Assembly (NCBI RefSeq): GCF_044324875.1
Contig: NZ_CP172185.1
DNA from: Escherichia coli
Lineage (GTDB): Bacteria > Pseudomonadota > Gammaproteobacteria > Enterobacterales > Enterobacteriaceae
DNA length: 64,000 bases
Reading direction: 5' to 3' (one strand)
The translations under genes were made by a program, and so were the position numbers. Of this stretch, positions 2,703-60,168 are shown piece after piece (the stretch's first letter is position 1; each line of letters starts with the position of its first letter). The notes beneath the pieces are model-generated. The model worked only from the letters and a program-made list of their open reading frames with translations, was not told where the DNA came from and made no database searches.

Positions 2703-4715
2703 TTACAACACCTCGCGAACCGAGATCCCCAGCCGCTGCATTCGTGACAGCAGCGTGGTGCGCTTCATCCCTAATCGCGTCGCCGCGCCACGGGGCCCGG
2801 CAACAATGCCATTGGTTTCTCGCAATACCTGAACAATGCGCTGACGTTCTTCTTCGTCATTCTCTGGCGTCGTCGGGTGCAGCAATTGCGCCATTGAACT
2901 GCGAAGCGCTGAATCTTCATTTAGCGTCGGCAGTAAACGGCTTTGTCGGACATTAAGATGTAAATTCAGACTGTTACCGCGAGTCAGTAGTACCGCTCGC
3001 TCAATCACGTTTTCCAGCTCGCGCACGTTGCCCGGCCAGTCCCACGACATCAACTGGCGTAGCGCCTCGGTCGGGATGGCGTCAATTGCGCGATTCATAT
3101 GGCGCGCCATTTTTTGCGTGAAATGCTTTGCTAAAAGAGGGATATCTTCCGGACGGTCGCGCAGCGGCGGCAATTCCAGTGGGAAGACATTCAGGCGATA
3201 AAAGAGATCGCTGCGAAACTGGCGATCTTCAACCATTTGCCACAAATCACGGTTGGTGGCGGCAATGACTCTGACATTTACCGGGATCGTTCTACTCCCG
3301 CCGAGACGCTCAATCTCCCGTTCCTGCAATACGCGCAGCAGTTTAGGCTGAAGTTCTAACGGCAGATCGCCAATTTCATCGAGAAACAACGTGCCGCCAT
3401 CGGCAATTTCAAAACGACCACGATGGGTATTAATCGCACCAGTAAACGCCCCTTTGTCATGACCGAATAACTCACTTTCCAGAAGACTGGCGGGGATGGC
3501 AGCGCAGTTGATTTTGACCAGTGGCTTGTCGCGTCGTGGGCTAAGTTGATGGATCGCTCTGGCGATCACCTCTTTGCCGGTTCCGGTTTCACCACAAATC
3601 AACACCGTACTGTCGCTCTTCGCCACAATATCTACCTGCTGGAGCAAATCTTCCATTGCCTGGCTTTGATAGATAATGTCACCGACGCCCAGATTCGAAA
3701 GGAGCTGCTCGCTAAGCTGGTGGTTTTCTTGCTGCAAGCTTTCCTGCAAATCGGTCATGCTGCGCCAGGCATCGGCATTGCCAACGGCAATAGCGATGCG
3801 ATCGGCAATATGTTGTAGTAGCTGGCAGTTTTCCTCACTAAAGAGAGTGGAAGAGGTATGCGCCAGCAACAATGCGCCCGGTGTATGGTTGCCAAAGGTG
3901 AGCGGTATAAGGAGCGCAGATTCGCAGCCGTTAGATGCAAGTAAGTGTAATAACGGGTCGCGTTGCCAGAGAAACAGATCGTCTGCACGGTGCGTCAAGG
4001 TCGGTTGTCGGGTTTGTAGCGTTTGTGTCAGCAATACACTTTCGCCAGGCATACAGCGTGGCAGACACGCACAATGTGAGGCAGAAAGATCGCTGCACCA
4101 CAGGCTGAACTTCTCGTTCTTTCGATGATCGCCCAGTACCATACTGACTGAAGCCAGACCGAAAAAATGATGGATCTCACGAGCGACGTCAGCGATCAGA
4201 TCGTCGAGATCAAGATGTGACAGCACTGCATTAGTGATATCCACCAGTACCCGATGATGATCGCGATCTTTCTCCAGCAAACGCAGCGCCACCTGTTGTT
4301 CTTCATCATTGAGCCATGATTGCAGAACCGGGGTGATAATGCGTGCCAGCCAGTTAAACAGTGTGCAATCCTGGGGAGTAAAACGCCTGCCGTGGGTACG
4401 AATAAAGCGTAGCTCCGCCATTCCACTACTGCCGAGAAGGACGGCGTGACGCGAATAATCGACCATCTCGCCCTGATACTCTGTTGTTGCCGTCACATCG
4501 CTGCCATCATCATGGTAGCGGTAATAGAAGTTGCTTTTGAGAACATGCAGTTCAATAAGTTGTACCGGGCTGAACGGCGGCGGCAGCGGGATGAAGGCGC
4601 GTAATAAAGACGCCTTGCCGTGTTTCTGCGCTAACCGCTCCGCGAGCATTCCGTTTACCGCTTCAATTGTTATTCCTTGCGGCGGGGCAAACATCGCCTC
4701 GTCTGACATAGCCAT
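2703..4715 (-). CDS. hyfR: Sigma-54-dependent transcriptional activator of the hyf operon (FhlA-like)
   Basis: Contains GETGTGKE Walker A and GAFTGA sigma-54 contact motif, C-terminal HTH; ATG at 4715 gives 670 aa (track ORF begins one codon earlier at a TTG). Confidence 0.93.
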
Positions 4716-23604: not shown

Positions 23605-23682
23605 GGCCTGATAAGACGCGTGATGCGTCGTATCAGGCATCGTTCACCATTGCCGGATGCGGCGTTAACGCCTTATCCGGCC
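23605..23682. repeat. REP/BIME element (two REP palindromic units) between ypfH and ypfN
   Basis: gtaggcctgataagacgcg...gcgtcgtatcaggcat and tgccggatgcggcgttaacgccttatccggcc, the classic E. coli REP (PU) signatures. Confidence 0.75.
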
Positions 23683-41187: not shown

Positions 41188-41667
41188 ATGAAACGAATTG
41201 CGTTTGTGGGTACCGTCGGGGCAGGAAAAACAACGTTATTTAATGCGTTGCAGGGGAATTATACCCTCGCCAGAAAAACACAGACCGTGGAATTTAATGA
41301 TAAGGGCGATATTGATACGCCGGGTGAATATTTTAGCCATCCCCGCTGGTATCACGCCTTAATTACCACGCTACAGGATGTGGACATGCTGATCTATGTC
41401 CATGGCGCAAATGACCCGGAAAGCCGATTGCCTGCCGGGTTGCTGGATATTGGCGTCAGCAAACGGCAAATCGCCATCATCAGTAAAACGGACATGCCGG
41501 ATGCTGACGTCGCCGCAACGCGAAAGTTATTGCTTGAGACGGGCTTCGAGGAGCCGATTTTCGAGCTAAACAGCCACGACCCGCAAAGCGTGCAGCAACT
41601 GGTGGATTATCTGGCATCTCTCACCAAACAGGAGGAAGCAGGTGAAAAAACTCATCACAGCGAATGA
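41188..41667 (+). CDS. eutP: Ethanolamine utilisation GTPase/acetate-kinase-like protein EutP
   Basis: 159 aa; Walker A GTVGAGKTT. Confidence 0.92.
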   Translation: MKRIAFVGTVGAGKTTLFNALQGNYTLARKTQTVEFNDKGDIDTPGEYFSHPRWYHALITTLQDVDMLIYVHGANDPESRLPAGLLDIGVSKRQIAIISKTDMPDADVAATRKLLLETGFEEPIFELNSHDPQSVQQLVDYLASLTKQEEAGEKTHHSE

Positions 41668-46307: not shown

Positions 46308-47144
46308 ATGGCGCACGACGAACAATGGCTCATCCCGCGTCTGCAAACGGCGGCAACGCTGTGTAACCAGACGCCTGCCGCAACGGAATCTCCGCTGTGG
46401 CTGGGGGTGGATCTGGGCACCTGCGATGTGGTGTCGATGGTTGTCGACCGCGACGGTCAGCCGGTGGCGGTATGCCTCGACTGGGCTGATGTGGTCCGCG
46501 ACGGCATCGTCTGGGATTTCTTCGGTGCGGTCACCATTGTTCGTCGCCATCTTGACACCCTCGAGCAGCAATTCGGTCGCCGTTTTAGCCATGCGGCGAC
46601 CTCTTTTCCTCCAGGTACGGACCCGCGTATTTCCATCAACGTGCTGGAGTCTGCCGGGCTGGAAGTGAGCCATGTGCTGGATGAGCCAACCGCAGTCGCG
46701 GATCTGCTGCAACTGGACAACGCCGGTGTAGTGGATATCGGCGGCGGCACCACCGGCATTGCCATCGTGAAAAAGGGCAAGGTGACTTACTCGGCAGATG
46801 AAGCCACCGGCGGACATCACATCTCTCTGACTCTCGCCGGAAATCGTCGTATTTCGCTGGAGGAGGCAGAGCAGTACAAGCGCGGTCACGGTGAAGAGAT
46901 TTGGCCCGCGGTGAAACCGGTGTACGAAAAAATGGCGGACATTGTCGCCCGGCATATTGAAGGGCAGGGCATTACTGATTTATGGCTGGCGGGCGGCTCT
47001 TGTATGCAACCGGGCGTGGCGGAACTGTTTCGCAAACAATTCCCGGCGTTACAGGTGCATTTACCGCAGCACAGTTTGTTTATGACCCCGCTGGCGATCG
47101 CCAGTAGCGGGCGAGAGAAAGCGGAGGGGATCTATGCAAAATGA
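46308..47144 (+). CDS. eutJ: Ethanolamine utilisation chaperone-like protein EutJ (actin/Hsp70 fold)
   Basis: 278 aa; VDIGGGTTGIA phosphate-binding loop. Confidence 0.92.
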   Translation: MAHDEQWLIPRLQTAATLCNQTPAATESPLWLGVDLGTCDVVSMVVDRDGQPVAVCLDWADVVRDGIVWDFFGAVTIVRRHLDTLEQQFGRRFSHAATSFPPGTDPRISINVLESAGLEVSHVLDEPTAVADLLQLDNAGVVDIGGGTTGIAIVKKGKVTYSADEATGGHHISLTLAGNRRISLEEAEQYKRGHGEEIWPAVKPVYEKMADIVARHIEGQGITDLWLAGGSCMQPGVAELFRKQFPALQVHLPQHSLFMTPLAIASSGREKAEGIYAK

Positions 47145-57462: not shown

Positions 57463-57675
57463 ACGGCCTGAGTTGTAATAATAAAGTTCCAGATGTTATA
57501 TCGTATCGCGTAATCCGTTACGACCGTTTGCTGTTGAGAATTGTTTTACTTTTCATTTCAATAGTTGACAACTCCCCATTATGCCACTTTTTCAACCGAT
57601 TTTCGTCAGATATTGGCTAATTCGACCGTTCACGCCATAATCAGCCTTTTAACCCGCAAAAAGGTAACGAATACC

Positions 57676-58101
57676 ATGGAGATACGCGTATTTCGCCAGG
57701 AAGATTTCGAAGAGGTCATCACCCTTTGGGAGCGTTGCGACTTGCTGCGTCCGTGGAACGATCCGGAAATGGACATCGAGCGTAAGATGAACCATGACGT
57801 CAGTTTGTTTCTGGTCGCTGAGGTAAACGGTGAAGTGGTCGGAACGGTGATGGGCGGTTATGACGGGCATCGCGGGTCTGCTTATTATCTTGGCGTGCAT
57901 CCAGAGTTTCGTGGGCGTGGGATTGCTAATGCGTTGCTTAATCGGTTGGAGAAAAAGCTGATTGCTCGCGGCTGCCCGAAAATTCAGATCAACGTGCCGG
58001 AAGATAACGACATGGTGCTCGGAATGTATGAACGCCTGGGATATGAACACGCCGACGTGCTGAGTCTGGGTAAGCGTTTGATTGAAGATGAAGAGTACTG
58101 A
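57676..58101 (+). CDS. ypeA: GNAT-family N-acetyltransferase YpeA
   Basis: 141 aa from ATG 57676 ([19 protein letters not shown]...); track ORF is extended 37 codons. Confidence 0.9.
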
Positions 58102-58537
58102 GTTTCATCCTGTCCATTATGATGCACACGGTCGCCTGCGTTTACCCTTGCTCTTCTGGCTTGTGCTATTGCTTCAGGCGCGAACCTGGGTGCTGTTTGT
58201 CATTGCCGGTGCGTCGCGCGAGCAGGGTACTGCGCTGCTAAATCTGTTTTATCCCGATCACGATAATTTCTGGCTGGGGTTGATTCTCGGCATTCCGGCG
58301 GTGCTGGCGTTTTTGCTGAGTGGTCGGCGGGCTTCATTTCCCCGTATCTGGCATGTGCTCTATTTTCTGTTGCTGTTGGCGCAGGTGGTTTTACTTTGCT
58401 GGCAACCGTGGCTGTGGCTGAACGGTGAATCCGTTAGCGGTATCGGGCTGGCGCTGGTAGTGGCGGATATTGTGGCGTTAATCTGGCTGCTGACCAATCG
58501 ACGTTTACGCGCTTGTTTTAATGAAGAAAAAGAATAA
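58088..58537 (+). CDS. yfeZ: Inner membrane protein YfeZ
   Basis: 149 aa hydrophobic ORF; start overlaps ypeA 3' end by 14 nt. Confidence 0.85.
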
Positions 58538-58538
58538 C

Positions 58539-58566
58539 GGCACTTTTTGGTGAATTTGCACTCCAA
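58539..58566 (+). promoter_or_regulatory. Candidate sigma-E promoter for yfeY
   Basis: GGCACTT-N16-TCCAA against sigma-E consensus GGAACTT-N16-TCNAA; about 32 nt upstream of yfeY ATG. Confidence 0.45.
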
Positions 58567-58597
58567 GCAACGTTATTGAATAACCAAAGGAAGTGAC

Positions 58598-59173
58598 ATG
58601 AAATCGCTGCGTTTAATGTTATGCGCTATGCCGTTGATGCTGACCGGCTGTTCCACGATGTCGTCAGTTAACTGGTCTGCCGCTAACCCGTGGAACTGGT
58701 TTGGGTCGTCCACCAAAGTGAGCGAGCAGGGCGTTGGTGAATTAACGGCGTCCACACCACTGCAAGAACAAGCCATTGCTGATGCGCTTGATGGCGATTA
58801 TCGCCTGCGCAGCGGAATGAAAACCGCGAACGGCAACGTGGTGCGCTTTTTTGAAGTGATGAAAGGCGACAACGTGGCGATGGTGATTAACGGTGATCAA
58901 GGCACGATCAGCCGCATTGATGTGCTGGATAGCGATATTCCTGCTGACACCGGTGTTAAAATCGGTACACCGTTTAGCGACCTTTACAGCAAAGCATTTG
59001 GCAATTGCCAAAAAGCTGATGGTGATGATAATCGTGCCGTCGAATGTAAAGCCGAAGGCAGTCAACATATTAGCTACCAGTTCAGCGGGGAATGGAGTGG
59101 TCCTGAAGGGTTAATGCCTTCGGACGATACCCTGAAAAACTGGAAAGTCAGTAAAATTATCTGGCGGCGTTAA
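58598..59173 (+). CDS. yfeY: Lipoprotein YfeY (sigma-E regulon member)
   Basis: 191 aa; signal peptide with lipobox LTGCS. Confidence 0.9.
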   Translation: MKSLRLMLCAMPLMLTGCSTMSSVNWSAANPWNWFGSSTKVSEQGVGELTASTPLQEQAIADALDGDYRLRSGMKTANGNVVRFFEVMKGDNVAMVINGDQGTISRIDVLDSDIPADTGVKIGTPFSDLYSKAFGNCQKADGDDNRAVECKAEGSQHISYQFSGEWSGPEGLMPSDDTLKNWKVSKIIWRR

Positions 59174-59184
59174 TTTGCGTCTGA

Positions 59185-60168
<984 letters not shown>

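Follow-up and report, generated by a model that had tools for sequence, protein, structure and literature searches.

The genes ypeA and yfeZ of Escherichia coli share 14 nt, and this overlap is an already known, ordinary feature of a two-gene operon. We consider it probable that the two genes are expressed from one sigma-70-driven mRNA, that translation of yfeZ depends in part on ribosomes that re-initiate after having read ypeA, and that the overlap is ancestral and has since been frozen. It lies at positions 58088-58101 (+ strand) of the 64-kb stretch of E. coli DNA that we analyzed, hereafter the window. At this locus, hemF and amiA on the minus strand diverge from ypeA, yfeZ, yfeY and yfeX on the plus strand. 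The RefSeq-annotated ypeA coding sequence (57676-58101, +; 141 aa) runs from an ATG at 57676 to a TGA at 58099-58101, and the yfeZ coding sequence (58088-58537, +; 149 aa) runs from an ATG at 58088 to a TAA at 58535-58537. It is followed 60 nt downstream by yfeY (58598-59173, +), which encodes a DUF1131 lipoprotein whose RefSeq name is 'RpoE-regulated lipoprotein'. As read from the sequence and its translation, the shared segment, ATGAAGAGTACTGA, encodes the YpeA C-terminus D-E-E-Y-stop in one frame and the YfeZ N-terminus M-K-S-T-E in the +1 frame. The yfeZ ATG straddles ypeA codons D138 and E139, and the segment takes in the last four sense codons of ypeA plus the stop. An earlier note on this DNA had described the 14-nt overlap at these positions, which both translation and the RefSeq annotation bear out, and had placed the yfeZ ATG within the last five codons of ypeA, which is right if the stop is counted; its gene names and coordinates likewise agree with the Pfam and NCBIfam matches and with translation.

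Both products were assigned to families by curated models. YpeA matched the GNAT model PF00583 of Pfam (1.9e-21, 77 bits; cutoff 20.7) and the NCBIfam equivalog NF002959 (259.8 bits; cutoff 124), and over residues 1-141 it is near-identical to PDB entries 2PDO, 4QUS and 4QVT ('Acetyltransferase YpeA'; E ~1e-94), in agreement with its earlier identification as a GNAT acetyltransferase. YfeZ, a DUF2919 protein, matched Pfam PF11143 (2.1e-49, 168.1 bits; cutoff 27.2) across model positions 1-145 of 146, corresponding to YfeZ residues 6-145. Four hydrophobic segments (19-residue Kyte-Doolittle windows scoring at least 1.6) predict a polytopic inner-membrane protein, and hydropathy thus supports the earlier description of YfeZ as a membrane protein. 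In the literature searched, we found no reported acetylation substrate for YpeA and no functional work on either YpeA or YfeZ.

A long overlap between same-strand genes often betrays a mis-called start codon, and the yfeZ open reading frame is in fact opened by a TTG at 58082-58084 (+), use of which would extend the overlap to 20 nt. It is nonetheless extremely improbable that the overlap is an annotation artifact, with yfeZ really beginning at this TTG or 3' of the ypeA stop. A TGA at 58079-58081 (+) closes the yfeZ frame upstream and makes any start before 58082 impossible, leaving the TTG at 58082 and the ATG at 58088 as the only upstream candidates; the next in-frame start is a TTG at 58148. 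Initiation at 58148 would delete the motif YD..G.LKPP..FW, which almost every DUF2919 protein in our alignment (38 diverse representatives, identity down to 21%) carries ~10 residues downstream of its N-terminal Met. The Pfam alignment moreover begins as early as YfeZ residue 6, and enterobacterial YfeZ homologs are almost uniformly 149 aa long. Whereas the ATG is kept in every related locus that carries the overlap (74/74), only some half of them have the TTG (53% of sequences show a T at 58083), and we rejected it as the yfeZ start for want of conservation. Because the frame boundary, the N-terminal motif, homolog length and ATG conservation all agree, these comparisons indicate that yfeZ starts at the ATG at 58088 and that the overlap is genuine rather than a start-codon error.

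The overlap is also on record. RefSeq annotates the same 14 nt in MG1655 (yfeZ, b2433, 2551277-2551726; ypeA, b2434, 2551713-2552138) and in strain ETEC1738, and Supplementary Table 2 of Huber et al. 2023 (PMC10666635) carries the entry 'NGHB#2374 -14, CMPLX not, b2434 ypeA, b2433 yfeZ'. With reference annotation and a published distance table already holding it, the overlap matters little in itself. Among prokaryotic genes, as many as one in three overlap a neighbor, mostly by less than 30 bp (PMC12548453). Within the annotated part of the window, 6 of 29 adjacent same-strand pairs overlap, three of them by 4 nt and three by more: eutJ/eutG (11 nt, 47134-47144, +), ypeA/yfeZ (14 nt) and eutP/eutQ (26 nt, 41642-41667, +). 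The two eut pairs resemble ypeA/yfeZ in being same-strand overlaps of more than 4 nt inside an operon, and they show that overlaps of this type are commonplace; they differ in that they sit in a long, functionally coherent operon, whereas no common function is known for ypeA and yfeZ.

Several other features of the window and of ETEC1738, the closest genome at the ypeA locus, were recorded alongside. The start codon of eutQ is a GTG located inside its 26-nt overlap with eutP. In ETEC1738, two copies of the IS4-family element ISVsa5 (L003 44171-45379 and L004 623-1831) have landed in eutJ and eutB; neither insertion exists in the window (equivalent positions ~46730 and ~51935), whose eut operon is intact. 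Rfam and tRNA scans found nothing at the ypeA-yfeZ locus, and the only Rfam hit in the window was the REP/BIME-derived naRNA4 (23605-23682, -; 85.7 bits), which sits where colinearity with ETEC1738 begins (window position 23667). An IS1397-family transposase gene of ETEC1738 (L003 19600-20948) ends 34 bp before this breakpoint, past which the gene content differs. IS1397 targets palindromic units of the REP/BIME kind.

The overlap is conserved throughout E. coli and across most of its family. Of 5426 complete E. coli genomes, 5425 carry the 1.3-kb locus, and a 60-nt probe spanning the junction found a full-length, ungapped match in 5425/5426 as well (100% identity in 3811 records, at least 95% in the rest). 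For the Enterobacteriaceae, one genome per species was scanned with a 10-sequence DUF2919 alignment, which returned Enterobacteriaceae only and from which 80 loci were kept (YfeZ 61-99% identical); more distant DUF2919 contexts came from individual look-ups. In 74 of these 80 loci, ypeA lies directly 5' of yfeZ and the overlap is exactly 14 nt, always with an ATG start. Positions 58084-58094 (GAAGATGAAGA) and the TGA stop are invariant across 75 aligned sequences, and this invariance includes the ypeA wobble positions 58086, 58092 and 58089, the last being the T of the yfeZ ATG (75/75). The fifteen ypeA wobble positions just upstream are mostly 40-68% conserved, with one at 91%. The sites that vary within the overlap, 58095 (G/A) and 58098 (C/T), are synonymous in ypeA and exchange S/N and T/I, respectively, in YfeZ. 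Judged from the alignment, this base pattern is the signature expected of dual coding plus a conserved start codon.

The loci that depart from this arrangement are informative. In Pseudocitrobacter vendiensis (L030, 2498-2974) and in a gut isolate of the Enterobacteriaceae (L042, 1353-1829), at the place corresponding to just past window position 58088, a divergent yfeZ paralog stands in tandem with yfeZ: its 158-aa ORF from a TTG (156 aa from the ATG, MKSTKPLLF...) retains the 14-nt overlap with ypeA, where the stop is TAA and Lys replaces Glu. Downstream in these two loci, the yfeZ ortholog itself has a new N-terminus (MYFPSDYD), along with a TGTATAAT promoter-like element of its own. A further locus, L068, has the appearance of one that shared this arrangement and then lost the paralog. 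An inserted minus-strand gene, encoding a lipoprotein of ~331 aa, separates ypeA from yfeZ in Phytobacter massiliensis (L074) and Atlantibacter (L079); nothing overlaps ypeA in Atlantibacter, where the Asp codon is GAC instead of GAT and the ATG is consequently lost. In L081, yfeZ comes after arnT, arnE and arnF instead of ypeA.

Transcription signals at the locus point to a single unit. A consensus scan identified a sigma-70 promoter upstream of ypeA (TTGGCT-17-CATAAT; 57613-57641, +), and the same hexamers are reported by Shimada et al. 2014 (PMC3946193) as an RpoD-holoenzyme site for the operon 'ypeA-yfeZ'. An element of the form TTGNNN-17-NATAAT precedes ypeA in all 73 of the Enterobacteriaceae loci compared (73/73). 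As is usual for an operon, the two genes are on the same strand, share the upstream promoter and leave no intergenic space for a terminator or a further promoter. The earlier note had proposed co-transcription and had named an independent yfeZ promoter as the finding that would speak against it; such a promoter was not borne out. The sole promoter-like site inside ypeA, a sigma-70-like sequence at 57860-57888, occurs in only 10 of 74 loci, its variation tracks synonymous TAT/TAC and ATG/ACG changes, and it was rejected as a conserved promoter; no conserved internal promoter for yfeZ was found among the 74 related loci. Where yfeZ has parted from ypeA in other genera, it has a TGTATAAT element of its own. 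A conserved upstream promoter, no conserved internal one and no space for a terminator together strongly imply that ypeA and yfeZ are co-transcribed, and with the published operon listing we regard co-transcription as well supported, if indirectly. Neither gene is mentioned in the supplements of the SMRT-Cappable-seq and kasugamycin papers.

The conserved promoter would thus give rise to a single ypeA-yfeZ mRNA, which may run on into yfeY. Such read-through is possible because no terminator separates the two genes, none being predicted in the 60-nt yfeZ-yfeY gap, and because, going downstream from ypeA, no terminator-like hairpin occurs outside coding sequence before the one at 59227-59249 (+; 9-bp stem with 5 GC pairs, followed by a T-run with the tail CTTATTTTCA). 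Read-through transcripts likely end at this hairpin. Directly 3' of the yfeZ stop, a regular-expression match revealed a sigmaE-type promoter-like element (GGCACTT-16-TCCAA; 58539-58566, +), and 64 of the 74 related loci carry this motif. With no terminator in between, yfeY may owe its expression to read-through as well as to a stress promoter of its own, in line with the RefSeq name of its product; the main texts of Rhodius 2006 and Shimada 2017 do not name yfeY. As a separate observation, in E. whittamii, E. albertii and other Escherichia (L007-L010, ~3450-3650) a REP-like palindromic insertion, GCCGGATGCGGCGTGAACGCCTTATCCGGCCTACA, lengthens the yfeZ-yfeY spacer (window equivalent 58538-58597) from 60 nt to ~200-470 nt.

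How yfeZ is translated from the shared message is less directly indicated. We found no conserved Shine-Dalgarno (SD) sequence for yfeZ in the 75-sequence alignment, where the SD-like bases vary, and the calculated anti-SD complementarity is weak (-3.3 kcal/mol, compared with -6.3 kcal/mol for yfeY and -3.9 kcal/mol for ypeA). This lack fits a dependence of yfeZ on ypeA ribosomes. Since there is no conserved SD, translation of yfeZ most likely depends, at least partly, on ribosomes that ypeA delivers. Such ribosomes would halt at the ypeA UGA (58099-58101), which lies 11 nt past the yfeZ AUG, and would re-initiate at this nearby upstream AUG (58088) in the +1 frame. SD-independent initiation on an unstructured, purine-rich stretch probably adds to re-initiation. 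On these sequence features, translational coupling of ypeA and yfeZ, which the earlier note had raised, is plausible.

Other considerations bear against a simple reading of the overlap as a coupling device. The dual coding constraint by itself, with no selection for coupling, would be expected to keep the 14 nt strictly conserved, and RNA folding argues against a model in which ypeA translation unmasks the yfeZ start. The 101-nt region at the yfeZ start has a predicted MFE of -18.8 kcal/mol, and 199 of 200 shuffled sequences fold at least as well (z = +1.81), while local accessibility is similar to that of the ypeA and yfeY starts. With the start region less structured than its shuffles, there would be no hairpin for ypeA translation to open, and coupling by 'unfolding' of a masked yfeZ start was unsupported. 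An unstructured start of this kind would, in turn, allow independent initiation. Published spacing data, reporter work among them, point in the same direction: enriched overlap spacings are -4, -1 and -8, coupling is most efficient from -4 to +3, a larger overlap lowers coupling more than a larger spacing does, and at -25 no coupling was seen (PMC12548453). The ypeA/yfeZ spacing of -14 falls outside both the efficient window and the enriched motifs, and re-initiation at this distance may be inefficient.

These considerations give some weight to the possibility, which we hold to be rather unlikely, that the genes are co-transcribed but uncoupled, with free 30S subunits initiating yfeZ de novo at its unstructured, SD-less start and the overlap being a neutral, frozen by-product of a spacer deletion. 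Besides the folding result and the inefficient spacing, the weak ypeA SD is in keeping with this account, as few ribosomes may pass over the yfeZ AUG, and so is the tolerance of spacings of +3, +13 and +136 nt in related taxa. Against it stand the absence of a conserved SD or any other recruiting element at yfeZ, and the published general association, in E. coli, of coupling with overlap or very short spacing. This account also leaves position 58086 to be explained, a ypeA wobble base outside the yfeZ frame whose invariance hints at selection on the initiation context. We favor a contribution of re-initiation, because nothing else that is conserved would recruit ribosomes to yfeZ and because 58086 is invariant outside its frame.

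A stronger version of coupling is very improbable in our estimation. Here the -14 overlap would itself be a selected device, in which an SD-less AUG and inefficient backward re-initiation fix a low, constant YfeZ:YpeA ratio, position 58086 forms part of the re-initiation context, and YpeA and YfeZ act in an envelope or porphyrin-related process. The identity of the neighboring genes amiA, hemF, yfeY and yfeX might suggest a process of this kind.

The preferred reading, a co-transcribed pair with partial re-initiation and an ancestral overlap, can be set against gene arrangements outside the family. Pantoea sp. A4, whose YfeZ is 51% identical, retains the order amiA<>ypeA-yfeZ-yfeY with no overlap: ypeA ends in ...GAAGATCGTGAATATTAA, yfeZ starts 3-6 nt later (+3/+6), and the ypeA tail holds no ATG. 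Two metagenome contigs (L091 and L090; YfeZ ~40% identical) keep the gene order with spacers of 13 and 136 nt, respectively, and in L086 other genes are inserted between ypeA and yfeZ. From this survey of spacing inside and outside the family, we conclude that the ypeA-yfeZ adjacency is a feature of the Enterobacterales and the overlap a feature of the Enterobacteriaceae. The overlap probably arose in the enterobacteriaceal ancestor, when a short spacer of the sort still present in Pantoea was lost and an ATG contained in the ypeA codons GAT-GAA was adopted as the yfeZ start. It would have been frozen since then, because most changes would harm YpeA, YfeZ or the yfeZ ATG. [quoted passage not shown]

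Outside the Enterobacterales, no GNAT gene neighbors DUF2919 in any of the five contexts inspected (Aliivibrio, L093; Ferrimonas, L098; and three metagenome contigs). In two of the five, Aliivibrio and a relative (L093 3001-4840 and L092 2628-4072), a minus-strand DUF2956 gene diverges from the DUF2919 gene, which is followed by a Dyp peroxidase of the YfeX family. In L093 only, a secreted protein of ~130 aa is encoded between DUF2919 and the peroxidase; it has a homolog directly 3' of DUF2919 in L087 (40% identity) and no detectable similarity to YfeY. This DUF2919-Dyp peroxidase module echoes yfeZ-yfeY-yfeX of E. coli and suggests that YfeZ is functionally tied to YfeX rather than to YpeA. 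On the evidence of gene order, the older genomic partner of YfeZ appears to be the Dyp peroxidase YfeX and not YpeA.

These contexts bear directly on the co-conservation of ypeA and yfeZ, which the earlier note had proposed as a check, and on the functional pairing of a GNAT enzyme with a membrane protein that it had implied. Co-conservation holds through the Enterobacteriaceae and into the Erwiniaceae, but not in the five contexts sampled outside the Enterobacterales, and beyond that order the pairing is left unsupported. That the overlap marks a dedicated partnership, with YpeA acetylating a substrate handled by YfeZ or the two proteins forming a complex whose stoichiometry is set by coupled translation, is thus quite improbable. 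The adjacency is admittedly kept over this whole range, subunits of complexes are enriched for short overlaps according to published work, and the tandem yfeZ paralog likewise retains its overlap with ypeA. Against this, the orthologous yfeZ has parted from ypeA in several Enterobacteriaceae (L074, L079, L081 and L086), the pair is marked as a non-complex in the table of Huber 2023 (PMC10666635), and our search turned up no functional study of either protein. Moreover, in the same genomes (L005-L084) YpeA is 90-100% identical while the overlapping YfeZ is 61-99% identical, and this gap in conservation suggests different selective regimes despite the shared transcript.

A distant DUF2919 paralog (171 aa) was also encountered in an accessory adhesin island of Salmonella enterica (L095-L097, 999-3516). 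There it overlaps the upstream gene for an HMW1C-like glycosyltransferase by 17 nt and a downstream gene of 150 aa by 4 nt; DUF2919 genes therefore begin inside their upstream neighbor in an unrelated context too.

The arrangement has a practical consequence for genetic work on either gene. Deletion of ypeA, or a C-terminal tag that touches its last 14 nt, would remove or alter the yfeZ start, and manipulation of the yfeZ N-terminus would conversely change the C-terminus of YpeA. Since the last 14 nt of ypeA are shared, phenotypes ascribed to single-gene mutants of ypeA or yfeZ need to be checked for polarity.

The nearest known counterparts are the short overlaps of -4 (ATGA), -1 (TGATG/TAATG) and -8 nt, which couple translation by termination-reinitiation and have been studied in E. 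coli (Huber et al. 2019/2023; Brown & Wade 2025 review). Like ypeA/yfeZ, these join co-directional genes of one operon; the second gene starts before the first one ends, which leaves separate transcription signals no space. The ypeA/yfeZ pair differs from them in its spacing, -14 as opposed to the enriched -4, -1 and -8, which places it in the range of reduced coupling in reporter studies, and in that it is not known as a complex ('CMPLX not', PMC10666635). Inefficient re-initiation at such a distance would be consistent with the partial dependence of yfeZ on ypeA ribosomes that we favor.

A second comparison is offered by the coat and lysis genes of phage MS2. Under the scanning model of Adhin and van Duin, the lysis start, which is situated within the coat gene, is reportedly reached by ribosomes that have terminated nearby. 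The MS2 pair is a phage regulatory device with experimental proof, whereas ypeA/yfeZ is known here from its sequence. In both, the start lies 5' of the relevant stop, and a terminating ribosome would move back over a short distance to reach it.
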